Source: Minisyncoccota bacterium (GTDB taxonomy: Bacteria > Patescibacteriota > Minisyncoccia > Phycocordibacterales > UBA9973). Taken from it: a stretch of 64,000 nt of DNA. The position numbers were made by a program, and so were the translations under genes. The notes beneath the pieces were generated by a model. The model was not told the DNA's origin. It searched no databases and worked only from the letters and a program-made list of their open reading frames with translations. Location: contig JBAZVG010000001.1 of NCBI GenBank assembly GCA_041661005.1, positions 607,515 to 671,514 on the forward strand, in the 5' to 3' direction. The first letter of the stretch is position 1. Every line of letters starts with the position of its first letter. This document shows positions 21,308 to 63,662 of this stretch, piece after piece.

Positions 21308-23527
21308 TTGTGTTATATTTCAAGTGTGACCACAGACACACAACATTTTTTTGGACTAAACAATAAACAAAAAGAAGCGGCGATGCACATAAGCGGTCCG
21401 CTTCTTATTATTGCAGGGGCGGGTGCGGGAAAAACTAAAACAATAACGCATAGAATTGTGAATTTGATAAAAAACGGAGTCGCCCCAGAGAGAATTTTAG
21501 CGGTTACGTTCACAAATAAAGCAGCAAAGGAAATGCGGGAACGGATTATCGCTGAAATTAAGAAAAATTCCCACGAAGCAGGGGGCCAAGAAAAAACCCC
21601 ATTCGTCAGCACGTTTCATTCATTGGGGGTCTATATCATAAAAGAAAATGCCAGATTGCTGGGATTAACCAAGCACTTTACGATTCTAGATGAAGGAGAC
21701 GCGACATCACTCATAAAAGAAATACTAAAGGAGTTAGGAATAGATCCGAAACAATATGATCCAAAAAAAATAAAAAATATAATATCTCGCGAAAAAGGAA
21801 AATTCACACATTTGTCAGACTATGCAGAGAGGGAAAGGGGAACATATGGTTTGATGGTAACGCAAGTTTGGGGTTTATATGAAAAACAAAAAATGAAAGA
21901 AAATTCGCTAGACTTCGATGATCTGCTTTTAAAGGCGACGAAATTGTTAAAGGACAATCTGGAAATAAGGAAAATTTATCAGGAGAAATGGGAATATATT
22001 CATATCGATGAATATCAAGACACAAATGAGGTGCAGTATTTGATGTCTAAAATGTTAGCGGAAAATAATGAAAATATCTGCGTAGTTGGAGACGCAGACC
22101 AAAACATCTACTCCTGGCGCGGAGCAAATTTGAAAAACATTTTAAGTTTCGAGAAAGATTATCCGAGTACAAAGATAGTTTTATTAGAAGAGAATTACAG
22201 ATCAACTCAAAACATCTTGGAGGCGGCCAATGTGGTAATTAAAAAAAACAAATACAGGCCAGACAAGAATTTATTCACAAAAAACAAAACTGGCGAAAAA
22301 ATAGGCCTATATGAAGCACTCGATGAAAGCGATGAGTCTGATTTTGTCGCGACAAAAATTCTAGAGATTTTAGATGGCTCGCCTGCGAGAGAAATATCCT
22401 CGGACTCACCACGAAAATTTTCTGCTGAAAATTTTCTCTGTCCGTCGTCGCCACTCCTACCAAGGGTTCCCTCGAGGACATTTCTCTCTTCGGCTGATAA
22501 CGCAGTAAGTTTCCTTGAGCGGGGTGTCTCGCAGGCTGACGAGCCGAGAGGCAGCGCTCCGCGAGCGCGCGGAGACAGCGACCCCGCTGAGACAGCACCT
22601 GCTCCCTTGTCCGAAATCGCTATATTATATCGCGCTAATTTTCAGTCGCGGGCGCTAGAAGAAGCAATGCTGAAATACAATATCCCATATCAAGTTTTGG
22701 GCGTTAAATTTTTCGAAAGACGTGAAATAAAAGACACCTTGGCATATCTTCGCGCAGCGCTAAACCCCGACAGTTTGTCGGACATAAAACGAATAATTAA
22801 TTTCCCTGCGCGAGGTATCGGCAAGGTTACTTTGGCTAAAATTTTTGCCGGACAAAAAGAAAACTTGCCAATTAAGGTAAAAATTAAAATAAATAATTTT
22901 TATAAAATATTAGAAGAAATAAAAGAAAAAATAGAAAGCGAAAAAGCAAGCAAAGCGATAAAATTTGTAGTAAAAAGGTCAGGCATCGAGACAGAACTCT
23001 CATCTGGCACCGAAGAAGATATGGAGAGGTTTGAAAACATAAAAGAACTCGCCACACTAGCGCTAAAATATGATAATCTGGAGAATGGTCTTGGTGTAGA
23101 AAAGCTTTTAGAAGACGCCTCACTCGCGTCAGATCAAGATTCACTGATTATCAGCGAACCCGCCTCCACCAAAGGCTTCGGCGAGGCAAAGGAAAAAAAG
23201 AAAGGAGAAAACTCTGTGAAATTAATGACCGTGCATGCTTCAAAAGGATTGGAGTTTAAGTATGTCTTTGTTGCCGGATTAGAGGATGGACTTTTCCCCA
23301 ACCAAAGACGCAACGAAGAAGTGGATAAGGATAGTGAAGAAGAGCGTAGACTTTTTTATGTGGCGATCACTCGCGCTAAAGAAAAATTATTCTTATCGTT
23401 CGCGAATTTCCGCACCATCTTCGGAGCGCGCAACATCAACGCTCCATCAGAATTTATATCGGACATACCAGCAGATTTATTGGAAAAAGAGGGAGAAAAA
23501 GATAGAATAAAGACAATTTATATATGA
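21308..23527 (+). CDS. uvrD: ATP-dependent DNA helicase UvrD/PcrA family
   Basis: LNNKQKEAAMHISGPLLIIAGAGAGKT (motifs Q/I); motifs through VI present; carries a ~220-bp in-frame repeat insertion; TTG start. Confidence 0.88.
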   Translation: MCYISSVTTDTQHFFGLNNKQKEAAMHISGPLLIIAGAGAGKTKTITHRIVNLIKNGVAPERILAVTFTNKAAKEMRERIIAEIKKNSHEAGGQEKTPFVSTFHSLGVYIIKENARLLGLTKHFTILDEGDATSLIKEILKELGIDPKQYDPKKIKNIISREKGKFTHLSDYAERERGTYGLMVTQVWGLYEKQKMKENSLDFDDLLLKATKLLKDNLEIRKIYQEKWEYIHIDEYQDTNEVQYLMSKMLAENNENICVVGDADQNIYSWRGANLKNILSFEKDYPSTKIVLLEENYRSTQNILEAANVVIKKNKYRPDKNLFTKNKTGEKIGLYEALDESDESDFVATKILEILDGSPAREISSDSPRKFSAENFLCPSSPLLPRVPSRTFLSSADNAVSFLERGVSQADEPRGSAPRARGDSDPAETAPAPLSEIAILYRANFQSRALEEAMLKYNIPYQVLGVKFFERREIKDTLAYLRAALNPDSLSDIKRIINFPARGIGKVTLAKIFAGQKENLPIKVKIKINNFYKILEEIKEKIESEKASKAIKFVVKRSGIETELSSGTEEDMERFENIKELATLALKYDNLENGLGVEKLLEDASLASDQDSLIISEPASTKGFGEAKEKKKGENSVKLMTVHASKGLEFKYVFVAGLEDGLFPNQRRNEEVDKDSEEERRLFYVAITRAKEKLFLSFANFRTIFGARNINAPSEFISDIPADLLEKEGEKDRIKTIYI
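22389..22486. repeat. TIR-bounded repeat family 2 (reverse orientation) inserted in frame in uvrD
   Basis: Termini gagaaatatcctcggac ... gtcctcgaggacatttctc; core gacggacagagaaaattttcagcagaaaattttcgtggtgagtccgag shared with 24020-24133 and 56167-56256. Confidence 0.7.
22521..22585. repeat. palindromic repeat family 3 (GGGGTGTCTCGCAGGCTGACGAGCCGAG...GGAGACAGCGACCCC) in frame in uvrD
   Basis: Shared with 62263-62327 and 62690-62754 (reverse); inner stem ctccgcg/cgcggag. Confidence 0.7.
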
Positions 23528-23538
23528 AACTCTTTCTT

Positions 23539-23631
23539 GGCATACTTTTTATAAAGCAATCTATCTCCGCAAGCTTGCGGAGCGAACTGCTCGGCTCGTC
23601 AGCCTGCGCAAGGCTTTCTAAAAAGTACGCC
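23539..23631 (+). repeat. intergenic TIR/hairpin repeat family 1, copy C
   Basis: Starts 12 nt after the uvrD stop; central hairpin ctccgcaagcttgcggag. Confidence 0.7.
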
Positions 23632-23656
23632 TGCAACGAATTTCATAATTAAAAAT

Positions 23657-24727
23657 ATGATATATAAAGCTAAAAAATCGTTAGGACTAAAAAACGAACA
23701 CGTTTTCGTCCGAGCCAAAAAGGCTTTAGGACAAAATTTCCTGAAATCGGAAATGGCCTTGCGAAAAATTATTGAAGCGGGAGAAATAAAAAAAGATGAC
23801 ATAATCCTTGAAATAGGTCCGGGCAGGGGAGCGCTAACAAAAAAGCTTTTGGAAAAAGTTTACCCCGCCACGGCGGGGCAAGGATTTGTGATAGCAGTAG
23901 AAAAAGATTATGAACTTTTTGAATTTTTAAAAAATAAATTTGAAAGTGAAATAAAATTAGGTTCTCTCGTGCTGGTGCAAGATGACATACTGGATTTTGA
24001 TATAACAAAAGTTGGGCAAAATATTCTCGAGCGAACCCTTGGTAGCAGAAAATGTGCTGGGGGCACATTTCTGAGAGACGACGGACAGAGAAAATTTTCA
24101 GCAGAAAATTTTCGTGGTGAGTCCGAGAATATTTTGCCCAATTTAAAACGCTACAAAATAATCGCCAACATCCCTTACAACATCACCGGCGCGATTTTGA
24201 AAAAATTTTTGACAGACAAACATCAGCCCGAAAGCATGGTGCTGATGGTGCAACATGAAGTTGCGACAAGAATACTCGGAAGGGGAAGCAACCCTTCGAC
24301 TCCGCTCAGGGTAAAAGAAAGCATACTTTCCATTTCGGTCAAAGCATACGGAGCTCCAAAAATGATTGCGAAGGTTGATAAAAGATATTTTTCACCAATG
24401 CCAAAGGTAAATTCAGCGATTATTTCCATAAAAAATATTTCACGCAAGAATTTTAATTCTCCTCTTGAGGAGTACTCCGACTTGGAGTCGGAGGGAGGTG
24501 GACCGAATTTATCCACCCCGTCTCGCCAGCGAGCCACCCCTCAAGAGGGGAATTTTGAAGAAAAATTTTGGGAAATAGTTAAGGCAGGCTTTGCGCACAA
24601 GCGAAAAAAGCTTTCTAGCAACCTGAAAAACATTTGTCAAAGGGCATCTTTGACAAGTTTGGGGAATAAAAGAGCGGAAGATTTGTCGCTAAAGGATTGG
24701 ATTGAACTTGCGAAATCACAAAACTAG
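23657..24727 (+). CDS. rsmA: 16S rRNA (adenine1518/1519-N6)-dimethyltransferase RsmA/KsgA
   Basis: LGQNFL, EIGPGRGALT, NIPYNI motifs; lengthened to 356 aa by two in-frame repeat insertions. Confidence 0.85.
   Translation: MIYKAKKSLGLKNEHVFVRAKKALGQNFLKSEMALRKIIEAGEIKKDDIILEIGPGRGALTKKLLEKVYPATAGQGFVIAVEKDYELFEFLKNKFESEIKLGSLVLVQDDILDFDITKVGQNILERTLGSRKCAGGTFLRDDGQRKFSAENFRGESENILPNLKRYKIIANIPYNITGAILKKFLTDKHQPESMVLMVQHEVATRILGRGSNPSTPLRVKESILSISVKAYGAPKMIAKVDKRYFSPMPKVNSAIISIKNISRKNFNSPLEEYSDLESEGGGPNLSTPSRQRATPQEGNFEEKFWEIVKAGFAHKRKKLSSNLKNICQRASLTSLGNKRAEDLSLKDWIELAKSQN
24020..24133. repeat. repeat family 2 copy in frame in rsmA (with an extra internal hairpin agaaatgtgc/gcacatttct)
   Basis: TIRs aatattctcgagc ... 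gtccgagaatatt. Confidence 0.7.
24461..24550. repeat. palindromic repeat family 4 (CCTCTTGAGG...CCTCAAGAGG) in frame in rsmA
   Basis: Shared with 31728-31802, 40784-40866 and 48989-49063; inner hairpin variant ctccgacttggagtcggag. Confidence 0.7.
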
Positions 24728-31307: not shown

Positions 31308-31847
31308 ATGACTGAAAAATTAAAACAAGCAATTGAAGAAGAAATCGCAAAATTGCCCAAAGAAGGGCAAGACGCCATTGGTGCTGTTAATTGGATTAAA
31401 ATAACCGAAGAAATAGGGAAAAAGTTTTTACTGGAAAATGATGAAATAGAAGATTTTCAATTGGAAACATTATTAGTCTTGATCGGATCCGTGGACTCTG
31501 AATTCTATTCAGTTAACATCGAAAACCAAGTGGGCACGACGAAGGAAGAAGCAAAAAATATGGCCGATGAAGCTTTCCAGAAAATATTCGTTCCCATAAG
31601 AAATATTCTGGAAGAAAATATAAAGAAAGATATGAAAAATAAAAATCCGGATTGGAAACAATCTCTTGATTTTATTCTCTCGGGTGGAGACTATCTTTCT
31701 TTTATAACGCCAACACAGACAAATTCTCCTCTTGAGGAGTACCCTTTAGGGGGAGGTGGAATATCCACCCCGTCTGGTAAACCAGCCACCCCTCAAGAGG
31801 GGAACGATCAAGAAACAGTTATCCCAGTGTTTTCGATAAAAAAATAA
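31308..31847 (+). CDS. hypothetical protein (carries a family-4 repeat in frame)
   Basis: 179 aa; N-terminal region resembles the next ORF. Confidence 0.45.
   Translation: MTEKLKQAIEEEIAKLPKEGQDAIGAVNWIKITEEIGKKFLLENDEIEDFQLETLLVLIGSVDSEFYSVNIENQVGTTKEEAKNMADEAFQKIFVPIRNILEENIKKDMKNKNPDWKQSLDFILSGGDYLSFITPTQTNSPLEEYPLGGGGISTPSGKPATPQEGNDQETVIPVFSIKK
31728..31802. repeat. palindromic repeat family 4 copy (in frame, encodes SPLEEYPLGGGGISTPSGKPATPQEGN)
   Basis: cctcttgagg ... cctcaagagg termini. Confidence 0.7.
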
Positions 31848-33671: not shown

Positions 33672-35519
33672 ATGGGCATATTTGATAAATTATTTAAAAA
33701 AAAAGGAAGTAACTCTTACGGAGGCGAAGCCAATGCGTCTATTCTAGCGGTATTACCGGAACAAATCTATGAATCGGCGAGTCTAGAGCTCCAAGATGTG
33801 ATCGCGCCATCAGCGCTCAAAATCGAATCAAAGTCCATAAATTTGGGCGACAAAATCGCTCGAACATTTTTTATAATATCTTACCCGAGATTTTTGACTG
33901 ACAATTGGTTTTCTCCGATAATCAATTTGGACAAAGTTTTTGATATTTCAATTTTCATCCATCCGATAGACACCTCTTTGATGCTACGACAATTTCAGAA
34001 AAAAGTTGCAGAAGTGCAAAGCCAGATAAATGTGCGTGAAACAAAAGGCATGGTACGCGATCCGATGCTTGACACTTCCTACCAAGACCTCGAAGGGTTG
34101 CGCGACAGCTTGATCCAAGCGCAGGAAAAAATGTTTGATGTCGGAATTTACATAACTATTTATGCCGATAATGAACTTGAGCTTTTCAAAACTGAAAATG
34201 AAATAAAATCCATGTTGGAATCTAAATTGATATACATCAAACCAGCGCTTTTTCAACAAGAAGACGGTTTCAAGAGCGTCATACCGATAAATACCGACTT
34301 GCTAAATATTCACCAAAAATTAAATTCGGAGCCCCTCTCGAGCGTTTTCCCGTTTATCTCTTTCGATCTGACTTCTGACAAAGGCATCCTTTACGGCATC
34401 AATAGACACAACTCAAGCTTAGTGATCTTCGATAGGTTCAGCTTAGAAAACTATAATTCAGTAACTTTTGCCAAATCAGGTTCAGGAAAATCATACGCGA
34501 CAAAATTGGAAATCCTCAGGTCTTTGATGTTTGATGTTGACGTGATAGTGATAGACCCAGAAAGGGAATACGAGTTTTTGTCTGAAGCCGTGGGTGGGAG
34601 ATATTTCAACATCTCCCTTTCTTCAGACCATCATATGAATCCGTTTGATCTGCCAATGCCACGTGAAGACGAAACGGCTGAAGATGTGTTGCGTTCAAAC
34701 ACCATTAATCTGGTCGGGCTCTTTCGATTGATGCTGGGAGGACTCACGCCCGAAGAAGATTCGATGGTTGATCGAGCCATTTCAGAAACTTATGCCATCA
34801 AGGATATAACTCCAGAATCGGATTTTTCAAATATCGAGCCTCCACTCCTTTCAGACTTTGAGATGGTGCTAGGAGGAATGGATGGAAGCGATTCGATCGT
34901 GCAACGTTTGGCAAAATACACCAAAGGCTCTTGGGCAACTTTTTTAAATAGACCAAGTAACGTGGACATCAATAAAAAGTTCATCGTCTTCTCTGTCCGC
35001 GATATGGAGGACGAATTGAAACCGGTCGCAATGTATATAATCATGCATTACATCTGGAATTCGATACGCAAAAATCTGAAAAAACGTTTACTGGTCGTCG
35101 ATGAAGCTTGGTGGATGATGAAATCCGAAGACACTGCTTCGTTCCTATATTCTATCGCCAAAAGAGGCAGAAAATATTATTTGGGACTTTCTACGATCAC
35201 CCAAGACGCGGCTGACTTCATGAAATCTCCATATGGCGTACCGATAATCACCAACTCCTCTATCCAGCTATTGTTAAAACAATCTCCGACAACTATTGAT
35301 ATACTGCAAAAAACATTCAATTTAACTGACGAAGAAAAATACCTCCTGCTCGAATCGAGCGTGGGCGAAGGCATCTTCTTTGCAGGGTTAAAGCACGTTG
35401 CCATAAAAATAATTTCTTCCTACATAGAAGATCAGATAATTACCAGTGACCCTTCGCAGATATTGTTAAATAGAAAAGCAAAAGAAGAACAAGAGGCGGG
35501 GACGCTAGTTGCAAAGTAA
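33672..35519 (+). CDS. VirB4/TraC-family conjugal-transfer ATPase, C-terminal ATPase domain
   Basis: Walker A AKSGSGKS, Walker B LLVVDEAW, conserved GLSTITQ region. Confidence 0.8.
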   Translation: MGIFDKLFKKKGSNSYGGEANASILAVLPEQIYESASLELQDVIAPSALKIESKSINLGDKIARTFFIISYPRFLTDNWFSPIINLDKVFDISIFIHPIDTSLMLRQFQKKVAEVQSQINVRETKGMVRDPMLDTSYQDLEGLRDSLIQAQEKMFDVGIYITIYADNELELFKTENEIKSMLESKLIYIKPALFQQEDGFKSVIPINTDLLNIHQKLNSEPLSSVFPFISFDLTSDKGILYGINRHNSSLVIFDRFSLENYNSVTFAKSGSGKSYATKLEILRSLMFDVDVIVIDPEREYEFLSEAVGGRYFNISLSSDHHMNPFDLPMPREDETAEDVLRSNTINLVGLFRLMLGGLTPEEDSMVDRAISETYAIKDITPESDFSNIEPPLLSDFEMVLGGMDGSDSIVQRLAKYTKGSWATFLNRPSNVDINKKFIVFSVRDMEDELKPVAMYIIMHYIWNSIRKNLKKRLLVVDEAWWMMKSEDTASFLYSIAKRGRKYYLGLSTITQDAADFMKSPYGVPIITNSSIQLLLKQSPTTIDILQKTFNLTDEEKYLLLESSVGEGIFFAGLKHVAIKIISSYIEDQIITSDPSQILLNRKAKEEQEAGTLVAK

Positions 35520-35537
35520 TACAACCCCTCCCAACCT

Positions 35538-35584
35538 CCCCTTGTCAGGGGAGGAAAAATTCGGAGTGTCTCCCTGACAAGGGG
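35538..35584 (+). terminator. GC-rich hairpin (ccccttgtcaggg / ccctgacaagggg, 13-bp stem) after the virB4 stop, before an extended -10 promoter (TGGTATAAT)
   Basis: Seen directly. Confidence 0.35.
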
Positions 35585-35620
35585 GATATAGGGGGTTGAA
35601 TTATGGTATAATTAAATTGC

Positions 35621-36610
35621 ATGAAATTTGGAAAATTTTTGTCATTATGTTTAATCGCCACGTTTGCAGTATTTGTAATTATTCCAACATACAAGGCAAA
35701 CGCTCAATCGTCTGGTGGCATCTCGATCAACATGTCGCCCTCCAATCCGGCGCCGTATGAAAACACGACTATCACCCTAAAAAGTTATGAGAGCAATCTA
35801 GACAGCGTCTTGATATCTTGGTCTATCGATGGAAAAGTTTCCTCCTCGGGTATTGGCAAAAAATCATTCTCTGTCACCGCTCCAGCCACAGGAGGGGAGA
35901 TGCGTGTTGTGGCCACAATATCTTTACCAAGTGGCCCAAAAAATATAAGTTTAACGATAAAGCCCTCTGTAATGGTTCTACTTTGGCAGGCAAACGACTC
36001 GCATGTTCCTCCTTTTTATAAAGGCAAGGCTCTACCAACCCCTGACAGCGAAGTGAAGGTTGTAGCGATGCCTGAAATAAGAAATAGTTCTGGTAATATT
36101 CCTCCACAGAACATGATCTACTCTTGGAAAAAAGACTACACCAACAACGTAGACGGTTCAGGCTATGGTAAAAGTTTTTTTCTCTACATAAACGATTATT
36201 TAGAAGACTCAAATAATATTTCAGTCGTAGTTTCGACCATAGATCAACAACTTTCATCGAATGCAAGCATAGACATAGGAACAGTCCAACCAAAAATATT
36301 ATTTTACAAAAATGACGCCAATCTTGGCACGATTTTAGAGCATTCACTGCTTAATCCTCACAAAATACAAGGAGGGGAGATATTAGAAGCAATACCTTAT
36401 TTTATTTCACCGAAAGAAATACAAAATCCGACCTTGGTCTGGAATTGGTATATCAATGACAATTTGGTAAACTTAATAAGTCCTAAAAAAAATTTAATGC
36501 CGTTGCAGGTGGAAGCAGGGACACACGGAACATCCAAACTAAGGCTCAATATTGAAAATCAAGACAAAATTTTTCAAACAGCAAATAAGGAAATAAATAT
36601 AGAATTCTAA
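35621..36610 (+). CDS. secreted hypothetical protein
   Basis: Signal peptide MKFGKFLSLCLIATFAVFVIIPTYKANA; Ser/Asn-rich. Confidence 0.5.
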   Translation: MKFGKFLSLCLIATFAVFVIIPTYKANAQSSGGISINMSPSNPAPYENTTITLKSYESNLDSVLISWSIDGKVSSSGIGKKSFSVTAPATGGEMRVVATISLPSGPKNISLTIKPSVMVLLWQANDSHVPPFYKGKALPTPDSEVKVVAMPEIRNSSGNIPPQNMIYSWKKDYTNNVDGSGYGKSFFLYINDYLEDSNNISVVVSTIDQQLSSNASIDIGTVQPKILFYKNDANLGTILEHSLLNPHKIQGGEILEAIPYFISPKEIQNPTLVWNWYINDNLVNLISPKKNLMPLQVEAGTHGTSKLRLNIENQDKIFQTANKEINIEF

Positions 36611-36616
36611 AATAGA

Positions 36617-38844: not shown

Positions 38845-38975
38845 AATTCCAAAACTTGTTGCAGGTGTAGTTTTAGATAGACATTGCGCAGGCTGTCGAG
38901 CCGAGCATAGCAAATTTTCAGCAGAAAATTATGTCGTGTCTAGATAAAACTATACCAAGAAAGAGTTTTGGAATT

Positions 38976-40783: not shown

Positions 40784-40866
40784 TCCTCTTTGAGGAGTAC
40801 CCTTTAGGGGGAGGTGGATGAATTTTCCACCCCGTCTCGCAAAAGCGAGCCACCCCTCAAGAGGGG
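40784..40866. repeat. palindromic repeat family 4 copy in the rpmH-rnpA spacer
   Basis: cctctttgagg ... cctcaagagg; inner hairpin ctcgc-aaaa-gcgag. Confidence 0.7.
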
Positions 40867-40869
40867 AAT

Positions 40870-41004
40870 CTAAACAGATAACTTTTTTCTGCCTTTTTGA
40901 CGTCTCCTCTTCAACACTTTCTTGCCAGTCTTGATTCTAGATCGAACTAAAAATCCATGGCTTCGAGCTCTCTTTCTTTTTTTAGGTTTGTATGTAAATG
41001 ACAT
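40870..41004 (-). CDS. rpmH: 50S ribosomal protein L34
   Basis: 44 aa [44 protein letters not shown] matches the L34 consensus; absent from the ORF track because it is shorter than 60 aa. Confidence 0.85.
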
Positions 41005-48865: not shown

Positions 48866-48988
48866 TCGAAGATCTGCCCGAGCTCCGGGAGGGGTCTGAC
48901 AAGACCCCTCCCATCCATCAAAGTCCACTAGTTGGACTCTTTCACTGAAGGAGCACTAGTGGCTTTTTCTTTTACCTTTTTTATTATT

Positions 48989-49063
48989 CCCCTCTTGAGG
49001 GGTGGCTCGCTTGTGAGACGGGGTGGATATCCCACCTCCCCCTAAAGGGTACTCCTCAAGAGG
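48989..49063. repeat. palindromic repeat family 4 copy overlapping the ruvB 3' end (supplies the last codons and stop)
   Basis: cctcttgagg ... cctcaagagg. Confidence 0.7.
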
Positions 49064-50090
49064 AGAATGGAAACCCTAAATGCTCATACGATGCCTTGGT
49101 GGCGACACGTCCGCGCGCAGTGCGCTCCAATAATCCGAGTTGAATTAAATACGGTTCGATTACTTCTTCGACGGTGGCTTCTTCTTCGGACATAGCAGCT
49201 GCCATAGTTTTTAACCCCACCGGTCCGCCCTTGAATTTTTCAATTAATATTTCCAAGAATTTTCTATCGGAAGAATTAAGCCCTATGTCATCGATCGCGA
49301 GCATATTCAATGCCTCTTTTACTATTTTCTGATCTAAACTTTTTTTATTGTCCTTTTTACTTACTTGAGCAAAGTCACGACAACGCTTCAAGAAATAATT
49401 TGCGGTGCGAGGAGTAAATCTGCTTCTCTTGGCGATCTCTGCTAAAGCCTCTTTTTCTAAAATAATATCTAAAAGTTTACTTGACCGCTCGATTATTTTT
49501 GCAATTTCTTCATTGGAATAAAATTCCAATCGGAAAACTCCGCCGGAGAATCGTGAACGAAGTGGAGAGGAGATCAAAGCCACTCGAGTAGTCGCTGCTA
49601 TCAAAGTAAAAGGCGGGAGGTCTAATTGAATAGTGCGAGCAGATGGACCTTTGCCGATGATGATGTCTAAAACACCAGACTCCATGGCTGGGTAAAGTAT
49701 TTCTTCAACCATTTTATTTAGTCTGTGAATCTCATCGATAAAAAGAATGTCGCCCGGAGCAAGGTTCGTGAGGATAGATGCCAAATCTCCCACTTTTTCG
49801 ATTGCCGGTCCGGAAGTTATTTTCATTTGCCGACCGGTTTCTTTTGCTATGAGATGCGCCAGAGTAGTCTTGCCCAAACCTGGAGGTCCGTAAAAAAGGA
49901 TGTGTTCTGGAATGTGTCCACGCTCCTCTGCCGCTCGCAAAAGGATTTTTACGTTGTCTTTTATGTGTTTTTGACCGATGTATTCATCGAAGCGGGTAGG
50001 GCGCAAGGTTTGATCCAGTACCACGTCTTCAGTTTTGCTTGCCCCGCCTTGGCGTGGGTCTTTTTCTTTGGAGGTTGACATTAGTTTCAC
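49056..50090 (-). CDS. ruvB: Holliday junction branch migration ATPase RuvB
   Basis: Walker A GPPGLGKTTLA, sensor motifs, winged-helix C-terminus. Confidence 0.92.
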   Translation of the reverse strand: MKLMSTSKEKDPRQGGASKTEDVVLDQTLRPTRFDEYIGQKHIKDNVKILLRAAEERGHIPEHILFYGPPGLGKTTLAHLIAKETGRQMKITSGPAIEKVGDLASILTNLAPGDILFIDEIHRLNKMVEEILYPAMESGVLDIIIGKGPSARTIQLDLPPFTLIAATTRVALISSPLRSRFSGGVFRLEFYSNEEIAKIIERSSKLLDIILEKEALAEIAKRSRFTPRTANYFLKRCRDFAQVSKKDNKKSLDQKIVKEALNMLAIDDIGLNSSDRKFLEILIEKFKGGPVGLKTMAAAMSEEEATVEEVIEPYLIQLGLLERTARGRVATKASYEHLGFPFSS

Positions 50091-55221: not shown

Positions 55222-57723
55222 ATGCCTAAAGAAGACAATCAGGATTCTAAAACATTAGTTTTGTTGGATTCTCACGCCATAATTCATCGTGCGTATCACG
55301 CCTTACCAGAATTTTTGTCGTCAAAAGGAGAACCCACTGGGGCCTTGTATGGCCTTGCAAGCATGTTGATGAAGATAGTTACTGATTTAAAACCAGACTA
55401 TATCGTGGCTTGTTATGATTTGCCGGAAAAGACTTTTCGTCATTTAGCTTATGATGATTACAAGGCTGGACGAGCGAAAACAGATGACGCTCTGATCTTG
55501 CAGTTGAAAAATTCTCGCCAGATTTTCGAGGCATTTAATATTCCTATTTATGACTGTTCGGGTTTTGAGGCGGATGATGTATTGGGAACGATATGCGAGC
55601 AGATGAAGAAAAATAATGGGACTAAGGTAATCATTGCTTCGGGTGATATGGACACAATGCAGTTAGTAGACGACAAGAGAGTCCAGGTTTATACCCTCAA
55701 AAAGGGAATTAATGAAACAATTTTATATGATGAAGATGCAGTTGTGGCCCGTTTTGGATTTAAGCCTCAACTTTTGCCGGATTACAAAGGATTACGTGGT
55801 GATCCATCAGATAACATTAAAGGTATCAAAGGGATTGGAGAAAAAACAGCAACTACACTGATTACGACTTTTGGCAGTATCGAAGAAATTTACAACAAAA
55901 TAAAAAAAGACGAAGAATCTTTCATTAAAGCTGGCATCACTCCTAGAATGATCGAGTTAATAAAAAATAATGAAGAAGAAGCGCTCTTTTCAAAAACTTT
56001 AGCCAAGATTCGAACTGATGTTCCGATAAATTTTCTTTTGCCCCAGAAAACTTTTTGGGAAAATGTAAATCCAGAAAAAATAGAGAAAACTTTTGCCTTG
56101 TTTGAATTTAGAAGCTTATTTGGACGTTTGAAAAACTTCTTTAGCGGACAGAAGACACACGAGGAGAATGTTCTCGAGCGAACCCTTGGTAGGAGTGACG
56201 ACGACGGACAGAGAAAATTTTCAGCAGGAAATTTTCGTGGTGAGTCCGAGAATATTCTCTCGAGTGAGGATTCTAAAGGTATAGATTCTCTGAAACTTCA
56301 AGAAGCTAGCATTGCTCTTTGGCTTGTAAATTCAGATATCTCAAATCCACAACTCGAAGATGTTTTAATGTTTGCCCGCCTAGACTCGGCGAGGCTGGCC
56401 AGCACAGATTCTTTTGATGTTGCGTATGAGCAAATTTTTAAGACTCTGAAAGAAAAAAAGCTTGATAGAGTTTATGAAGAAATAGAACGTCCAATAATGC
56501 ACATAGTCAAAGAGATGGAAGATTATGGAATTTTGATAGATAAAAAATATTTTGAAAATTTATCAACGGAGTATCATCGAGAATTAGATAAATTAACTGC
56601 CAAAATATACAAGATGGCTGGCACAGAATTCAATATCAATTCACCCAAACAGATGGGGGAAGTTCTTTTTGAGAAAATGGGCATGAAGTCCGGAACAAAA
56701 TTAGCCAAGAAAAATGCGAGTGGCAACTTTTCTACCAAAGTTTCAGTATTAGAAGAACTTGAAGAAGCAAACCCAATAATCAAAGAAATACTTGCTTACC
56801 GAGAATTGCAAAAATTGCTTTCCACTTATATTGATGTAATTCCTAAAATGGTTGGCGCTGATGACAGACTACATGCAATATTTTTGCAAAATGGCAGTAC
56901 CACTGGAAGATTCTCCTCGCAGGATCCAAATTTGCAGAACTTGCCGATAAAAACAGAATTAGGGAAAAAGATTCGAGGTGGTTTTATCGCCCAAAAGGGT
57001 TACAAACTCTGCGCTTTTGATTATAGTCAGATTGAACTGCGTGTAGCTGCCATACTTTCGGGTGATAAAAAAATGACGCAAATATTCAAGGAAGGTAAGG
57101 ATATTCATTCAGGAGTTGCGTCTTTTGTTTTTGGTGTGCCGATAGATAAAGTTGACAGTGAAATGCGACGCAAGGCGAAGGTAATAAATTTCGGAATAAT
57201 TTATGGCATGGGAGTTTCTAGTTTACGCAAGAATCTTGGGGGTACACGAGAAGAGGCGCAAAAATTTTATGATAATTACTTTAATCAATTTTCCGGAGTG
57301 CGAGATTATTTGGAGGAAACGAAGAAGTTTGCGCTAAAAAATTCTTTTACCGAGACTTTGTTTGGCCGACGTAGATATTTTCCGAATATAAATTCCAGAA
57401 TTCCATTTTTAAAAAATATGGCCGAACGGACAGCCACGAACGCGCCAATCCAAGGCACAGCCACGGCGGATATTATCAAGCTTGCTATCAGATATGCAGA
57501 AGAGGATTTAAAAAATGCAGGACTTTTGGCACAAGTTCATCTTGTTCTCCAAATTCATGACGAGCTGGTGTATGAAATAGAGGAAGGTGTTTTAGAAAAA
57601 GCTGATGAAATAATAAAAAATGCCATGAAAAGTGTCTTGGAAAGATCATATTTGCATTATAAAACCGATATTCCACTTGAAGTGCATTCTGGCTCTGGAG
57701 ACAATTTCGGGGAGGTAAAATAG
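55222..57723 (+). CDS. polA: DNA polymerase I
   Basis: 5'-3' exonuclease domain (LLDSHAIIHRAYHA), polymerase motifs A/B/C (DYSQIELR, KxxNFGxxYG, QIHDEL); the annotated ORF starts at 55156 but the internal Met at 55222 is preferred; carries an in-frame family-2 repeat. Confidence 0.9.
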   Translation: MPKEDNQDSKTLVLLDSHAIIHRAYHALPEFLSSKGEPTGALYGLASMLMKIVTDLKPDYIVACYDLPEKTFRHLAYDDYKAGRAKTDDALILQLKNSRQIFEAFNIPIYDCSGFEADDVLGTICEQMKKNNGTKVIIASGDMDTMQLVDDKRVQVYTLKKGINETILYDEDAVVARFGFKPQLLPDYKGLRGDPSDNIKGIKGIGEKTATTLITTFGSIEEIYNKIKKDEESFIKAGITPRMIELIKNNEEEALFSKTLAKIRTDVPINFLLPQKTFWENVNPEKIEKTFALFEFRSLFGRLKNFFSGQKTHEENVLERTLGRSDDDGQRKFSAGNFRGESENILSSEDSKGIDSLKLQEASIALWLVNSDISNPQLEDVLMFARLDSARLASTDSFDVAYEQIFKTLKEKKLDRVYEEIERPIMHIVKEMEDYGILIDKKYFENLSTEYHRELDKLTAKIYKMAGTEFNINSPKQMGEVLFEKMGMKSGTKLAKKNASGNFSTKVSVLEELEEANPIIKEILAYRELQKLLSTYIDVIPKMVGADDRLHAIFLQNGSTTGRFSSQDPNLQNLPIKTELGKKIRGGFIAQKGYKLCAFDYSQIELRVAAILSGDKKMTQIFKEGKDIHSGVASFVFGVPIDKVDSEMRRKAKVINFGIIYGMGVSSLRKNLGGTREEAQKFYDNYFNQFSGVRDYLEETKKFALKNSFTETLFGRRRYFPNINSRIPFLKNMAERTATNAPIQGTATADIIKLAIRYAEEDLKNAGLLAQVHLVLQIHDELVYEIEEGVLEKADEIIKNAMKSVLERSYLHYKTDIPLEVHSGSGDNFGEVK
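56167..56256. repeat. repeat family 2 copy in frame in polA
   Basis: aatgttctcgagcg ... gtccgagaatatt TIRs; encodes ...RSDDDGQRKFSAGNFRGESENIL. Confidence 0.7.
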
Positions 57724-57724
57724 G

Positions 57725-58219
57725 GTGTTTTGTGGTAGAATAAAAAACATGGAAAATATTAATCAACCTAATGCTAGGCAATACCGTGTTCATAAAATTT
57801 TGGCGCATTCGTATACCCTTTATTTAATTTTATTTTTGATTGGTGTTTGCCTTGATATTCTTTTTAAGTTTAGAATTTTTTTAAATCCCTTTTTCATGTC
57901 GACAGGTGTTGTTTTGTTGATACTTGGCAGCTTTTTGATTATTTGGGCACAGAAAACTTCTCGAGATCTGAACATAGAGAATCTAAGCAAAGAGACTTTT
58001 CACAAAGGACCCTATCGTTACACTCGGAGCCCGACGCATTGGGGGCTTTTTATGCTGGTGCTTGGTTTTGGAATTGTGGCGAACGCTCTTTTTGTGATTT
58101 TATCCACTCTTGTTTCTTTTTCTATTTCGAGATCTATATTTTTAAAGAAGCAAGAAGATGTTCTTGCTTTGAAATACGGCGCTCCTTATTTGGAATATAA
58201 AAAATCAGTCAAACTTTAA
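57725..58219 (+). CDS. isoprenylcysteine carboxyl methyltransferase (ICMT)-family membrane methyltransferase
   Basis: GPYRYTRSPTHWG motif, multiple TM helices. Confidence 0.7.
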   Translation: MFCGRIKNMENINQPNARQYRVHKILAHSYTLYLILFLIGVCLDILFKFRIFLNPFFMSTGVVLLILGSFLIIWAQKTSRDLNIENLSKETFHKGPYRYTRSPTHWGLFMLVLGFGIVANALFVILSTLVSFSISRSIFLKKQEDVLALKYGAPYLEYKKSVKL

Positions 58220-58223
58220 TCCC

Positions 58224-58871
58224 ATGATTTATCTTTTTTCAGGAGATGACGCCAAAAGTAAATTTTCCAGTTATGAAAAATTTATAAAATCCATACCGGA
58301 GGGGCAAGACGTTTTGCATATAAGCAGAAATAATTTTGATCAAATGCAAATTGAAAGTTTGTATTCTGGTTCCAGTCTTTTTTTTGCAAAATCTACCGTA
58401 ATATTTTCTAATATTTTTGAAAATGAAGAGACCCGGGATTTTATTTTAGAGAAATTGGCTCTGATGGGCGGGCCTTCGAACTCTTTTGTCTTTTTGGAAG
58501 GAAAGTTGAACAAGCCAATACTGGACGCTTTTAGAAAAGTCCGGGGCGAAATAAACATTTTTGAATTACCGAAAGAAAAAAAAGAGAGATTTGATAATTT
58601 TTTAGTTGCCAACGCTTTTGAAAAAAAAGATAAGCTGAATGTGTGGATTTATTTTCGTATGGCGATGGATAAAGGGGTAGGAATGGAGGAGCTTATCGGC
58701 GTTCTTTTTTGGAAGATTAAAAATATGCTCTTAAAAAGAAATTTTGGCAAATTTTCTGAAACTGAACTTAAAGATTTTATCTCCCGTCTTTCTTATCTTT
58801 TGCCCCAAGCCCGTAAAGATGGGCGTGATGCCGAATCCGTTTTCGAGCAATTTTTGCTGGAAGCTTTTTAG
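58224..58871 (+). CDS. DNA polymerase III delta-subunit-like protein (HolA-like, short)
   Basis: N-terminal IYLFSGDD and overall helical composition; weak. Confidence 0.4.
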   Translation: MIYLFSGDDAKSKFSSYEKFIKSIPEGQDVLHISRNNFDQMQIESLYSGSSLFFAKSTVIFSNIFENEETRDFILEKLALMGGPSNSFVFLEGKLNKPILDAFRKVRGEINIFELPKEKKERFDNFLVANAFEKKDKLNVWIYFRMAMDKGVGMEELIGVLFWKIKNMLLKRNFGKFSETELKDFISRLSYLLPQARKDGRDAESVFEQFLLEAF

Positions 58872-58922
58872 TTATATTTTGTCTTGATTTTTGACCTTAT
58901 TTACTATATATTTTGTATTCAA

Positions 58923-58995
58923 GCGCCCGTAGCTCAGTCGGTAGAGCAGATCCCTTTTAAGGATAAGGTCGTTGGTTCGATCCCAACCGGGCGCA
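58923..58995 (+). tRNA. tRNA-Lys (TTT)
   Basis: GCGCCCG acceptor, D arm GCTC-AGTCGGTA-GAGC, anticodon loop CTTTTAA, T arm GTTGG-TTCGATC-CCAAC; 27:43 G.A mismatch. Confidence 0.8.
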
Positions 58996-59194
58996 CAAGA
59001 TTAGAAAACATTCAAACTGCTTTGAATTTTTCTAACTTGTGCGAGACGGAGACATGTTTTACTAGCAAGTAAAACTGTTGAGTCAGGGTCGTGAAAATTT
59101 TGTTTTGTCGAAAACAAAATTATTCCTGACCACAGGGAAGTTCTCGGTTTTGTTTTATAAGTATGTTTTGTCCTTAACCCCGACAGGAATCGAA

Positions 59195-60916
59195 TTAATA
59201 CACCTCCTGTTGATAACATTTTACACAGTAAACTATTTCTGGTCGCTCGGGTGCATAGGAAGTTTCAAATTCATTGGTACAGCCCTTATTCATACATTTT
59301 CTGTGCCAAAGTTTCCAGGGTAGGGTTTTCTCTAGTCTAACGAAATAGCGACAATTGGGGCAAAGACTTGGAATCGGTAAATTCATACGTTTATAAAATT
59401 TTAACTCATCGGGCATAATACGAAACGCTTTTGTGCATTGATGGGTGCATGAACCCTCATGCTCGCATTGAATAGTTTCTTTTAAAATATCTTCAGTTAC
59501 TTTAGAAATATCGTCTGCAATATCAGTATTTTTAATTGTAAATTTATAATCACGACCGACATCATCAAACCATTGATACCCCTTTTTTAATGTTTTTTCT
59601 TTTGATAATGGAAATTGTTCGTATGCCATTGTTTCATTATATGTAAAAGACGAAAGTTCTATTGGAAAAAATTCTCCAAATTTATATTTACAGCCATTTT
59701 TATCTATGTATGGCATATCTTTCATTTGTTTTTTTATTTTTTCTAATAAGAATTCGTATTCTGCTTTAGTATATTGTTTATTAAAAATGCAATTATCTAT
59801 TGAATCCAAACCAATGCAACCCAAATTATTTTTCACATTATTACAAGAATGACAATAATATGACTGCATGGTGTTCCAAGAACAAGAGACAAAACCAATT
59901 TCATAGTTACCTCTCCCGCTACAGATTGATTCGTACATTCGTTCTCCTCTCCCTGAATCAAGCATATCGTATGAATCGTTTGAAGAATTTACAGAATAAG
60001 TAACATAACGGATATTTTCTGAATTCCAAACATAAAATGATGAAAGACAATTTTTAGAATTTTCTATAAAATTTCCAGTGCAATCTTGTGCATTTATAAG
60101 TGTGGCGAAAGGAACAATAGTATTTGCTATTAATTTGTCGTATTCATTGGTAAGTTTTAATAAAGATGAACGAGATGAAATTTTTTCTTTTTTTATTGCT
60201 TCTTTGTATGCTTCTTTTGAAAGTTGCTCATTTCTAAATACGTAATTACGATTACGCTGGTTTGAAGACATAAAACAGTTTTGGCAATTCACACAATTAA
60301 AAAGAAATTTTGAATCAATACACTGATGGCATTTTGTTAAGTAAGAGCATTCATAATTATCATTTGAATCAACAGCTTCATAGCATAATTCATTGCCTTT
60401 AAAAATAAGCGAATCAAAACAGTTTTTATTATTTTTGTTTACAAAAGTTGAATAGTAAACGTGTTCTGAGGTAGTAACATTGTAAGATAAATATATATCT
60501 GAGCTTGAATATGTATAGTTAGCGTATTCACATTTCTCACCGTTACTGTTTGCCTGCTCAATGCAAAGTTGGGGAACTTTTCTTTTTAATTTTTCAAATT
60601 GGGTAAAAAAATCAACCGAAAAATCATAATCTAACCAGTAATCAAGAGGATTAAAATTATCAGAAAAATAACATTCAAGACACCAAACAGTGTAGGGTGC
60701 ATCTGCTCTATAAATTGAAACAATTTTATTCTTGCAATTATCACATTTTCTATTATATAAACTACGCACGTTAAAAGTTGCCATGCGACGTTGCAATCTA
60801 CACTCCGGACAGAAAGTTGGCGGAGGCATTTTTATCCTTTCATAAAAAGAAAAATCCTCTGGTTCTATGGTGAAATCTTTTTTGCAGTTTTGGCATATTT
60901 TAGTTTCAGATTGCAT
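59195..60916 (-). CDS. cysteine-rich zinc-ribbon protein, paralog of 14356-16041
   Basis: 573 aa; same N- and C-terminal modules and identical C-terminal end RPEIVYCxxCYQQEVY. Confidence 0.6.
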   Translation of the reverse strand: MQSETKICQNCKKDFTIEPEDFSFYERIKMPPPTFCPECRLQRRMATFNVRSLYNRKCDNCKNKIVSIYRADAPYTVWCLECYFSDNFNPLDYWLDYDFSVDFFTQFEKLKRKVPQLCIEQANSNGEKCEYANYTYSSSDIYLSYNVTTSEHVYYSTFVNKNNKNCFDSLIFKGNELCYEAVDSNDNYECSYLTKCHQCIDSKFLFNCVNCQNCFMSSNQRNRNYVFRNEQLSKEAYKEAIKKEKISSRSSLLKLTNEYDKLIANTIVPFATLINAQDCTGNFIENSKNCLSSFYVWNSENIRYVTYSVNSSNDSYDMLDSGRGERMYESICSGRGNYEIGFVSCSWNTMQSYYCHSCNNVKNNLGCIGLDSIDNCIFNKQYTKAEYEFLLEKIKKQMKDMPYIDKNGCKYKFGEFFPIELSSFTYNETMAYEQFPLSKEKTLKKGYQWFDDVGRDYKFTIKNTDIADDISKVTEDILKETIQCEHEGSCTHQCTKAFRIMPDELKFYKRMNLPIPSLCPNCRYFVRLEKTLPWKLWHRKCMNKGCTNEFETSYAPERPEIVYCVKCYQQEVY

Positions 60917-61232: not shown

Positions 61233-63662
61233 TTGATGTCCAATATACGCAAGAGTATTTTTAGATTACAGAAGCCATGGGAGCCAAGTGGTGACCAACC
61301 AGAGGCTATTTCAAAGCTTGTGGAGGGACTTGAGAAGGGGATGAAAAAGCAGACATTACTCGGGGCGACAGGCACGGGCAAGACTTTTACGATGGCAAAT
61401 GTGATAGCGCGATATAATAAACCAACTCTAGTAATAGCGCACAACAAAACTCTAGCAGCGCAACTCGCGCAGGAGTTTAAATTATTTTTTCCAGATTCCG
61501 CGGTGCATTATTTTGTTTCTTATTATGATTATTATCAGCCAGAGGCTTATATGCCTGCCTCAGATACTTACATTGAAAAAGATGCATCTATCAACAAAGA
61601 AATAGACATGCTTCGTCACGCTTCTACTCAAGCGCTACTCACTCGTCCGGATGTCATTATTGTGGCTTCTGTGTCTTGCATTTATGGATTGGGGTCGCCC
61701 GAGGAATATGAAAAGGTAAATCTGAAATTAGAAGTTGGGCAGAAGGCAGACCGAATGTCTCTGATGAAATCTCTCATTGCTATACATTTTGAACGCACAA
61801 ACGCTGATCTTACCCCTGGAACTTTTCGCTCTATTGGTTCACGAGTAGAGTTAATGCCGGTTTCTGAATCGGTAATGTATCAGATTGAAATGTCGGGTGG
61901 AATAATTTCTAAAATAACAAAAGTTGATCCAGTTTCTTCACATATTCTCAAAGAAGAAAAAAATATTTTTGTTTTTCCGGCTAAACATTTTATTACTGAA
62001 GATATAAAAAAGAAAAAAGCGTTAGTAGAAATTAAAAAAGAATTAGCGAGTCAGCTGAAAAAATTTACAAAAGAGGGAAAACTTCTAGAAGCAGAGCGAA
62101 TAAAACGTCGTACAAATTATGATCTCGCAATGATCAAAGAAGTCGGTTATTGTAGTGGAATTGAAAATTATTCTAGACATTTGTCCGGCAAAAGCGAAGG
62201 AGAACCCCCAGAAACTTTGCTTTCTTATTTTCCGCACACAGGAGCCAGTAATTTTCTTTTCCGGGGTGTCTCGCAGGCTGACGAGCCGAGAGGCAGCGCT
62301 CCGGAAGCATCCGGAGACAGCGACCCCGAAAAAGAAGAATTACTGGCTCCTGTTCCGGATTTTTTAACCATCATCGACGAATCGCATGTAACCTTACCTC
62401 AACTTCAAGGTATGTATGCAGGGGATGCTTCACGCAAGAAAACTCTCGTAGATTATGGTTTTCGTCTACCTTCTGCTAAAGACAATAGACCCCTAAAATA
62501 CGAGGAATTTCAGGAACGCATCGGACAGGTGATTTACACGAGCGCGACCCCAAGTGAACAAGAAAGAAGCCAAAGTGAACAAATCGTAGAACAAATAATT
62601 CGTCCGACTGGGCTTGTGGATCCGGAAACGGTAGTGCGTCCAGTATCTGAAGGAAAAATTTTGGGTAATGGCGAGAAATCTTCTTTTTTGGGGTCGCTGT
62701 CTCCGCGCACTCGCGGAGCGCTGCCTCTCGGCTCGTCAGCCTGCGAGACACCCCAAAAAAGAAATTTCTTTCCATACCCAGGACAGATTTCAGACTTTAT
62801 AAGTGAAGCAGAAAAAACTATCAAGAAAGGTTTTCGTGTTTTAGCTACGACGCTGACTAAAAAAATGGCGGAAGATCTAACCACTTATTTAAAAGAACGT
62901 GGATTCAAAGCTGAATACTTACATTCTGATATCAAAACAATGGAACGCATTAAAATACTTACTAGGTTTAGACGTGGAGGAAAAGGGGAACTTGCCCCGT
63001 CCCAAGCCGGAGGCTTTGGTGCGGGGTTTGATGTTTTAGTTGGAGTGAATCTTTTGCGTGAGGGGCTTGATTTGCCGGAAGTTGCGCTGATTGGCATTCT
63101 CGATGCTGACAAAGAAGGATTTCTACGTTCCGATACAGCGCTCATTCAAACTATCGGCCGAGCTGCTCGCAATAGTGAAGGCAAAGTAATTCTTTATGCA
63201 GATGTTTTGACGGGTTCAATGGAGCGGGCTCTGGGGGAGACCGTTCGCCGTCGTAATATTCAGCTTGCCTACAACAAAAAGCATGGCATTACCCCGAAGA
63301 CTATTATGAAAAAGATCAAAGATATTACTGAAGAAATGGAAAGCGAACATGGAAAAACTGTCAATGCAGAATTGGCGCTTGATTTAGAAGTCTTTAAAAA
63401 AGCTTATTCTAAAGAACTTAGTAAAGACCTGCCTCGACTAGGCAAGGCGGGCGAAAACCTTGCCCGCAAAAAAGTAAACTCTGAATTTTGGAATGAAATT
63501 CTATCAGATGAAGAAAGGGGAAATCTCATTTATGAAAAAATAATAAAGATAAAAGAACGCGAGATGAATAAAGCAGTTAAAGAATTGGATTTTGAAACAG
63601 CTGCGATTTTGCGTGATGAAATTGGAGTGCTCAAAGTGCGTTTGGAAAAGAAAGATCAATAA
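61233..63662 (+). CDS. uvrB: excinuclease ABC subunit B
   Basis: Helicase motifs (GATGTGKT), beta-hairpin, C-terminal UvrB/UvrC interaction domain; two in-frame family-3 repeat insertions. Confidence 0.92.
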   Translation: MMSNIRKSIFRLQKPWEPSGDQPEAISKLVEGLEKGMKKQTLLGATGTGKTFTMANVIARYNKPTLVIAHNKTLAAQLAQEFKLFFPDSAVHYFVSYYDYYQPEAYMPASDTYIEKDASINKEIDMLRHASTQALLTRPDVIIVASVSCIYGLGSPEEYEKVNLKLEVGQKADRMSLMKSLIAIHFERTNADLTPGTFRSIGSRVELMPVSESVMYQIEMSGGIISKITKVDPVSSHILKEEKNIFVFPAKHFITEDIKKKKALVEIKKELASQLKKFTKEGKLLEAERIKRRTNYDLAMIKEVGYCSGIENYSRHLSGKSEGEPPETLLSYFPHTGASNFLFRGVSQADEPRGSAPEASGDSDPEKEELLAPVPDFLTIIDESHVTLPQLQGMYAGDASRKKTLVDYGFRLPSAKDNRPLKYEEFQERIGQVIYTSATPSEQERSQSEQIVEQIIRPTGLVDPETVVRPVSEGKILGNGEKSSFLGSLSPRTRGALPLGSSACETPQKRNFFPYPGQISDFISEAEKTIKKGFRVLATTLTKKMAEDLTTYLKERGFKAEYLHSDIKTMERIKILTRFRRGGKGELAPSQAGGFGAGFDVLVGVNLLREGLDLPEVALIGILDADKEGFLRSDTALIQTIGRAARNSEGKVILYADVLTGSMERALGETVRRRNIQLAYNKKHGITPKTIMKKIKDITEEMESEHGKTVNAELALDLEVFKKAYSKELSKDLPRLGKAGENLARKKVNSEFWNEILSDEERGNLIYEKIIKIKEREMNKAVKELDFETAAILRDEIGVLKVRLEKKDQ
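62263..62327. repeat. palindromic repeat family 3 copy in frame in uvrB (encodes GVSQADEPRGSAPEASGDSDP)
   Basis: Inner stem ctccgga/tccggag, compensatory relative to the uvrD copy. Confidence 0.7.
62690..62754. repeat. palindromic repeat family 3 copy, reverse orientation, in frame in uvrB (encodes GSLSPRTRGALPLGSSACETP)
   Basis: Inner stem ctccgcg-cact-cgcggag. Confidence 0.7.

Follow-up and report, generated by a model that had tools for sequence, protein, structure and literature searches.

Until now, protein-coding palindromes have been seen as particular to Rickettsia, apart from scattered cases in other organisms. Here, we describe palindromic repeats of this kind in a 64,000-nucleotide stretch of the genome of a Minisyncoccota bacterium (contig JBAZVG010000001.1 of assembly GCA_041661005.1, positions 607,515 to 671,514; this whole stretch is referred to below as the window), in which a GC-rich, hairpin-forming repeat, named family 3 in a preliminary description of this DNA, lies in frame once in uvrD and twice in uvrB. 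The repeat appears to be one subfamily of a large and apparently undescribed superfamily of selfish palindromic repeats, which by record titles belongs to the Patescibacteria (candidate phyla radiation; CPR). What is observed is a widespread repeat superfamily with a branched fold, presence/absence polymorphism, in-frame residence in housekeeping genes and inversion in place, and we consider it probable, although well short of certain, that the repeat is a Y-shaped palindromic element of a selfish and probably mobile kind, whose copies are translated as loops inserted into the host proteins.

The closest known counterpart is formed by the Rickettsia palindromic elements (RPEs), to which the present element is unrelated in both host and architecture. 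In the account of Ogata et al. (2000, 2002) given in PMC10969869, RPEs are palindromic, are around 100–150 bp in length, form several families and occur in small AT-rich genomes; as related there, many copies lie in frame in unrelated housekeeping genes, where they encode a conserved peptide that is apparently compatible with the protein fold. As with RPEs, the present unit is palindromic (111–120 nt with 46 modelled pairs), is repeated (seven copies in the 64-kb window) and resides in frame in unrelated genes (at least 92 copies within coding sequences at about 17 sites), with one conserved peptide per orientation. In contrast to RPEs, the hosts are Patescibacteria, the fold is Y-shaped and genic and intergenic subfamilies are built around the same asymmetric, invariant 17-nt core; the element is read in either orientation, with one fixed frame for each and with inversion in place, and the outer stem is specific to the copy, whereas that of RPEs follows a family-wide consensus. 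Membership in RPE-1 to RPE-10 is unlikely, the element being set apart by host phylum as given in record titles.

[quoted passage not shown] Points of resemblance between MITEs and the present element are the small, non-coding size, the terminal inverted repeats of 20–30 bp (the outer helix P1), the long hairpins and the occurrence both between genes and in frame within them. The usual MITE pattern is reversed here, with ends that differ from copy to copy and an asymmetric core inside that does not; no target-site duplication is identified, and no parent insertion sequence is seen in the 8-kb loci around the copies or in the window. Repetitive extragenic palindromes (REPs) are 20–40 bp in length, bear a tag, GTAG or CGTC, at the palindrome's 5' end and are associated with RAYT transposases of the Y1/HUH type (PMC3733652). 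With REPs and REPINs the element has in common abundant palindromes, covarying stems and fixed short tags, and by analogy a trans-acting enzyme that reads a folded single strand may also act here; however, it falls outside their definition, being about 110 nt in length, branched and often located in genes, with CGTC present only as the complement of the GACG loop. No Pfam match to Y1_Tnp is found among the open reading frames (ORFs) of at least 150 amino acids in the window, with the ORFs at 57725–60916 left unscanned and no genome-wide search made for RAYT. Nematomorph mitochondria have coding palindromes as well (PMC6649704); there, as here, long near-perfect inverted repeats lie in functional protein-coding genes, and both arms are translated, as is predicted for the present element. 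Those palindromes are not dispersed as a family around a common core, and it is conserved protein regions that their arms encode, whereas the present unit is as a whole an insertion that orthologues lack. No description of this element is found in open-access papers and bioRxiv preprints, either on Patescibacteria and the CPR or on in-frame palindromic elements in general.

The repeat unit and its covarying fold

Both host genes lie on the forward strand: uvrD at 21308–23527 (a 739-amino-acid ORF with the Pfam domains UvrD-helicase and UvrD_C) and uvrB at 61233–63662 (an 809-amino-acid ORF recognized by UvrB orthologues and solved UvrB structures). The three copies are found where they had been reported, at 22521–22585 and 62263–62327 on the forward strand and at 62690–62754 as the reverse complement, with the sequences given there, and both ORFs stay open through all of them and encode the peptides claimed. 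The preliminary description had taken 65 bp as the repeat unit, but these 65 bp are its inner part only, the unit being about 111–120 nt. In agreement with this size, the insertion at the first uvrB site (site A) amounts to 117–120 nt when compared with an 81%-identical uvrB in which site A is empty. The covariance model that had been proposed there was built; it spans 111 nt and matches the family-3 copies of the window at 94–123 bits, namely the uvrD copy at 22499–22609 (+, 94.4 bits), the copy at uvrB site A at 62241–62351 (+, 123.1 bits) and that at uvrB site B at 62666–62776 (−, 115.6 bits). The uvrD copy is sense to its gene, encodes ..ERGVSQADEPRGSAPRARGDSDPAE.. and has a partly degenerate outer stem; the copy at site A is likewise sense, encodes ..GASNFLFRGVSQADEPRGSAPEASGDSDPEKEELLAP.. 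and has an outer stem that pairs over 62238–62353, and the copy at site B is antisense and encodes ..EKSSFLGSLSPRTRGALPLGSSACETPQKRNFF... A repeat search finds the inner parts at 22521–22585 and 62690–62754 to be 98% complementary over 65 nt and the two uvrB copies to form arms of 92 nt that are 88% complementary. Read on the same strand, the former two differ in a single loop base (AGCG versus AGTG), and the copy at 62263–62327 has the stem CTCCGGA/TCCGGAG in place of the CTCCGCG/CGCGGAG of the other two, with two pairs altered on both sides; the outer stems differ among all three.

The 65-nt core strand is predicted to fold into a three-way junction with −34 to −35 kcal/mol (z of −2.5 to −3.3), whereas the opposite strand folds less stably, with −29 kcal/mol (z of −0.4 to −1.4). 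P1, the outer helix, extends 20–30 bp into the flanks, is specific to the copy or the site and carries an extra base on its 3' arm in about 40 of 54 copies, usually a G some ten bases from CCCC. P2 is a stem of 4–5 bp that closes an internal loop and the hairpin GGCU-GACG-AGCC, the loop and the hairpin together making up the invariant 17-nt core CAGGCTGACGAGCCGAG, and in P3 a loop of the AGCA type caps a stem with two conserved and five variable pairs.

The core occurs seven times in the 64-kb window, against 0.03 occurrences expected, one of the seven having one mismatch; three belong to family 3 and four to the intergenic repeat previously named family 1. That the two families have the core in common had been claimed before, and the four intergenic copies indeed carry both the core and the same three-way architecture. 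They lie at 10482–10591 (+, 53.8 bits; outer stem, core arm and a hairpin with an AGC-type loop), at 13518–13627 (−, 61.7 bits), at 23530–23639 (−, 63.3 bits), between the stop codon of uvrD and the start of ksgA, and, in a diverged form with one core mismatch and the P3 hairpin TTTTC-AGCA-GAAAA, at 38856–38965 (+, 46.1 bits). Because the family-3 model matches all four end to end, at 46–63 bits, families 1 and 3 are regarded as a single superfamily. Family-1 copies have conserved ends, AAACTCGTYGCAGGCGTAC ... GTATGCCAAGAAAGAGTTT (at 10470–10602, 13505–13640 and 23520–23650 of the window and at the public loci L021, L033, L060, L110 and others).

The superfamily was followed in public sequences by two scans, both of which demanded the exact core: one over one genome per species, with the core and three further bases, which gave at least 118 stretches, and a family-3-specific one over metagenomes, which gave at least 120. 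Taxon names are those in the titles of metagenome-assembled genomes (MAGs), which may be wrong. Among the matches listed, record titles assign nearly all of those in genomes to the Patescibacteria (Nomurabacteria, Paceibacterota, Zambryskibacteria, Minisyncoccia, Parcubacteria and MAGs labelled Saccharibacteria), and in the few matches in GC-rich genomes of other phyla the surrounding architecture is absent. The UvrB protein of the window is identical to one from a Candidatus Paceibacterota MAG. The core is absent from viral contigs (0 matches in the scan), and no phage vector is evident. Several subfamilies have the core and the AGCA-loop hairpin in common and differ in their junction sequences and in P1. 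The P2 stem also changes between subfamilies, being TC/GA, of GC type or TT/AA, with G:C going to C:G at the base of the stem while the core is unaltered, and one T:G pair in P2 is nearly invariant across them.

Covariation was evaluated in a gap-free alignment of 54 distinct family-3 copies over 111 columns. Standard pairs fill 90.1% of the cells, against 71.3% in column shuffles and 42–47% with the partners slid; two-sided change is seen in 34 of the 46 modelled pairs, and values as high as these are obtained in none of 500 shuffles. In P3, pairing is about 99% at the five variable positions, with four or five pair types each, and all 27 pairs of P1 show changes on both sides. Around the core, 25 consecutive columns are invariant in all 54 copies, third codon positions included, while identity in the host flanks of orthologous sites is no more than about 70%. 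The covariation noted in the three copies of the window thus extends well beyond them. Its reading as consistent with selection on a nucleic-acid structure is supported, but has to be qualified, since template switching or arm-to-arm conversion can also yield compensatory changes.

That the arms are kept complementary by DNA-level processes acting on palindromes, such as template switching or arm conversion during flip-flop inversion, with the element still being selfish, is the alternative that survives best, although we consider it rather unlikely. Template switching can make perfect hairpin pairing in a single event (PMC10710096), and inversion in place, which is documented below, implies interaction between the arms. 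Each family-1 copy is moreover abutted by copy-specific inverted repeats of 7–18 bp and not by direct repeats, as if it had been inserted into a palindrome or the palindrome had grown outward, and the outer stem at uvrB site B seems to pair with host codons. However, the 5-bp stem of P3 and the 4–5-bp stem of P2 covary cleanly although they are too short for recombination between arms, and the variants of P3 are discrete alleles common to several sites. The excess of G:T over A:C mismatches and the invariant T:G pair of P2 are strand-specific, and neither is predicted by symmetric processes on a duplex.

In-frame residence in housekeeping genes

Pooling both scans, at least 92 distinct family-3 copies among the matches listed lie within long ORFs, at about 17 gene sites. 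The 44 sense copies are all in frame 0 and read ..G(V/L)SQADEPRGSA-x5-DSDP.., the 47 antisense copies are likewise all in frame 0 and read ..GSLS-x5-ALPLGSSACETP.., and the remaining copy uses another frame in a doubtful ORF; the predicted element-encoded peptides include GVSQADEPR and GALPLGSSACETPR. Hosts confirmed by Pfam are UvrD and UvrB (two sites each), Tgt, TsaD, an IleRS-type synthetase, Fmt, RecG, peptide deformylase (Def), CCA/poly(A) polymerase and a pseudouridine synthase, and LeuRS, a GlmM-like protein and an IscS-like protein are named by eye only. A further 28 listed copies lie outside long ORFs, mostly just past the end of a gene, and no split gene is found among them. The tolerance of both orientations in frame, proposed from the three copies of the window, is therefore borne out by the 44 sense and 47 antisense copies, which are open throughout; pseudogenizing insertions with stop codons, which would have spoken against it, are not seen among the copies within coding sequences.

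One of the sense frames always contains the TGA of the core, and the other unused frames contain stop codons in 12–29 of the 54 aligned copies, whereas the two frames in use are open in 52 and 53 of the 54, whatever the present orientation of the copy. They are open in either orientation because the element is symmetric, and owing to the one-nucleotide asymmetry of the arms they are mirror images of each other about the outer P1 axis and the P3 axis. Because these frames are open, it is inferred that the inserts are translated, as flexible loops.

UvrB allows filled and empty sites to be compared. The uvrB ORF of the window has three insertions relative to solved UvrB structures, two of which are the family-3 copies at site A, which follows ..LSYFP and corresponds to about 62235–62354 of the window, and site B, which follows ..VRPVSE and corresponds to about 62650–62780. 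Among the 120 closest UvrB proteins (P0001–P0120), site A is empty in 42 and site B in 50, and some orthologues hold family 3 at these sites in either orientation. As had been suggested, the copies were mapped onto a UvrB structure, where they fall between residues 331 and 332 (site A) and between residues 427 and 428 (site B) of PDB entry 9gy7_E. An AlphaFold model based on the 120-sequence alignment is of moderate quality overall (mean pLDDT of 62.5), and in it the element-encoded segments 337–371 and 475–511 are coil with a pLDDT of 25–31, flanked by structured strands; they are thus predicted to be disordered loops. That the outer stem derives from the target is not supported in general, since both arms are absent from empty alleles at site A and over most of site B; only the outermost few pairs of the stem may involve host codons. 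Filled alleles share small flank differences, with ..FPH..PDF.. against ..FPKTGF... The third insertion, the short GKGELAPSQAGGFGA at about 62979–63023 of the window, lies between RFRRG and FDVLVG near residue 494 of 9gy7_E; it is present in 19 of the 120 close orthologues and not in solved UvrB structures, and its residues 583–595 have low pLDDT.

In-frame residence could also result if the inserts were a reusable protein module, such as a linker or an interaction motif, taken up by many enzymes and kept for its peptide, but we regard this as very unlikely. The single frame per orientation at about 17 sites and the conservation of the resulting peptides would fit such a module, as would the finding that about half of the copies or more have no stop codon in alternative frames. 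Conservation is, however, at the nucleotide level and includes third codon positions, one and the same site can encode either of two unlike peptides, VSQADEPRGSA or ALPLGSSACETP, depending on the genome, and the stems alter amino acids freely while pairing is kept. The segments are predicted to be disordered, many orthologues have no insert, and the unit is found between genes as well.

Inversion in place and the probable folding strand

Six sites carry both orientations in different genomes. At the TsaD site, 150 nt separate the host anchors in either orientation, and the arm with the extra base stays 3' of the core in both, so that the whole unit is turned and not its centre alone. In the Fmt alleles L082 (sense) and L101 (antisense), an exact inversion is seen between perfect 14-bp inverted repeats, ATCCGGCAAGGATT/AATCCTTGCCGGAT, with three differences within the inverted segment, against an identity of about 80% in the gene around it. 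Independent insertions as the origin of the two orientations are less likely than inversion, since the site-specific arms and the asymmetries flip together with the core. The outer arms are more alike within a site (55% similarity) than between sites (42%), whereas P3 alleles often differ within one site and recur at others; the history is therefore a mixture of descent, flipping and replacement or re-insertion.

The mismatches in P1 bear on which strand folds. Counted on the core strand, G:T mismatches outnumber A:C mismatches by 67 to 25, the counts being modest and orthologous copies not being independent, and the same excess holds for antisense copies (39 to 12 on the core strand), although their mRNA would bear the disfavoured C.A. 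Together with the equal frequency of sense and antisense copies, this speaks for a fold formed by the core strand itself, in the simplest case as single-stranded DNA. No strand bias relative to replication is evident, the seven copies of the window pointing both ways on both sides. The window contains dnaA and dnaN at 41156–43734 and probably spans a replication origin.

A structured RNA that acts in cis in the host mRNA as a ribozyme, processing site, stabilizer or regulator, and that is kept for this function, would explain the strong covariation, the invariant core, the conserved tetraloop and the fact that the core strand out-folds shuffled sequences; the core also contains CUGACGAG, which is similar to the CUGANGA box of the hammerhead ribozyme. 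Such a role is nevertheless highly improbable. Sense and antisense copies are equally common among the listed copies (44 and 47), even at the same site, and the G:T excess follows the core strand even where this is antisense to the gene, which together disfavour a role of the structure in mRNA. Furthermore, many close orthologues are without the element, and self-cleavage within essential mRNAs would be harmful. A search of the whole window against Rfam 15 at gathering thresholds gives tRNAs only, and a permissive search with the uvrB copies gives best matches of 13–14 bits against thresholds of 95–150. The resemblance to the hammerhead is confined to the three-way junction and the box (CUGACGA): there is no GAA(A), with AGC following the putative stem II, the box lies in an arm and not at the junction, Rfam gives no match and both orientations occur in mRNAs, and a hammerhead is therefore rejected. 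By eye, an attC-like site is also rejected since there are no R'/R'' boxes, as is a k-turn since there are no tandem G.A pairs.

GC-rich mobile inserts are known to be bypassed by ribosomes in yeast mitochondria. Removal of the present element before or during translation, by intron-like excision or ribosomal bypass, which would make the frame irrelevant and has no observation specific to this element in its favour, is hardly credible, because it would lift the constraints on stop codons and frame, whereas all 92 listed copies within coding sequences are stop-free and keep the host frame on both sides, 91 of them use the single frame of their orientation, and even a decayed copy in the UvrB protein P0015, of which only a stub of the outer arm is left, is still in frame.

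Proposed mobility, nearby repeats and neighbouring genes

As a selfish, probably mobile element, the repeat would spread, or would once have spread, as a non-autonomous mobile element. A trans-acting enzyme would recognize the folded core strand, most likely as single-stranded DNA, via the invariant core hairpin and the AGCA loop, and selection would retain only those copies that have a length divisible by three and lie in permissive surface loops. The frames retained would give flexible peptides rich in Gly, Ser, Pro and Asp, the element would be translated and not removed, and the two orientations would interconvert through inversion between the outer inverted repeats.

Several points weigh against this interpretation. 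No transposase or other candidate mobilizing gene adjoins the copies in the 8-kb loci or in the window, and the window holds only a Xer-like integrase and the reverse transcriptase of a diversity-generating retroelement (DGR), with no demonstrated link to the repeats. No target-site duplication can be defined, the boundaries between filled and empty uvrB site A being ambiguous and allowing at most a repeat of a CCN/Pro codon. Near-identical copies across different sites of one genome are a hallmark of recent transposition, and among the loci listed such copies are found in one genome only (L048/L061/L075). Stop codons in the other frames explain the strict use of a single frame only partly. 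In other genomes, sites A and B of UvrB are filled by at least five further insert families that are unrelated to family 3; selection alone may not explain this, and either a target preference or a filter by selection may lie behind it. Finally, copies at the same site are not independent, the counts are lower bounds and MAG labels may be wrong. A composite transposon was considered at the locus L090, where two inverted copies lie 1.9 kb apart, and was rejected, since the copies sit in frame in two ordinary genes, by eye SpoU-type methyltransferase-like and Fpg-like.

A bolder version, which is possible but which we hold only tentatively, is that the superfamily is phylum-wide structured mobile DNA of Patescibacteria that is adapted to essential genes and acts as a reversible in-frame `flip cassette' remodelling the surface loops of enzymes. 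In such a cassette, an enzyme would read the folded core strand via the invariant 17-nt hairpin and the AGCA loop, the unit would be free of stop codons with a length divisible by three, and the one-nucleotide asymmetry of the arms would provide a second benign peptide after a flip.

As a system in Patescibacteria that is unrelated to that of Rickettsia and richer than it, the superfamily makes the colonization of essential genes by in-frame hairpins look recurrent in reduced, gene-dense genomes. It would explain many inserts of 35–45 residues and length differences in CPR proteins, and is thus relevant to their annotation, orthology assignment, structure prediction and phylogenomics, while the exactly conserved 17–20-mer can serve in practice to mark CPR DNA. 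A search for the enzyme responsible for moving or flipping the element can start from its invariant core, covarying stems and inversion in place, and the same features allow one to ask whether pairing is maintained by selection or by replication-templated conversion.

Two of the other insert families of UvrB also occur elsewhere in the window. The first is a second in-frame palindromic family at 22392–22482, in uvrD directly upstream of the family-3 copy, at 24019–24134 in a ksgA-like gene and at 56167–56256 in polA, with the peptide ..DDGQRKFSAENFRGESE.. and the hairpin GAAAATTTTC-AGCA-GAAAATTTTC; it also fills UvrB site B in P0004, P0020, P0023 and P0050. The other, a third repeat family (..CCACCCCGTCTCGC..GCGAGCCACCCCTCAAGAGGGGAA..), lies at 24510–24568, 31723–31814, 40790–40884 and 48977–49068, encodes the peptide ..PLEEY..GGG..STPSRxRATPQEGN, has an in-frame copy in the ksgA-like gene and also fills site B of the UvrB proteins P0005, P0015, P0034, P0049 and P0090. 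In a metagenome contig (L216), a cysteine-desulfurase-like ORF holds two in-frame families, antisense family 3 and a ..GLAGVGDPGNRGPE.. family.

Among the neighbouring genes, that of the Xer-like tyrosine recombinase (10963–11949) adjoins the family-1 copy at 10482–10591, and a cluster at 33672–37255 contains genes for a type IV secretion pilin and for a P-loop ATPase similar to TraG, neither with a demonstrated link to the repeats. The DGR occupies 7020–9707 of the window, with its reverse transcriptase (RVT_1) at 7020–8069 on the reverse strand. Its template repeat (8479–8586) and variable repeat (9083–9190) are 82% identical, the latter lying at the 3' end of an ORF at 9060–9707 (−), and all 21 mismatches within the repeats fall at adenines of the copy at 8479–8586.

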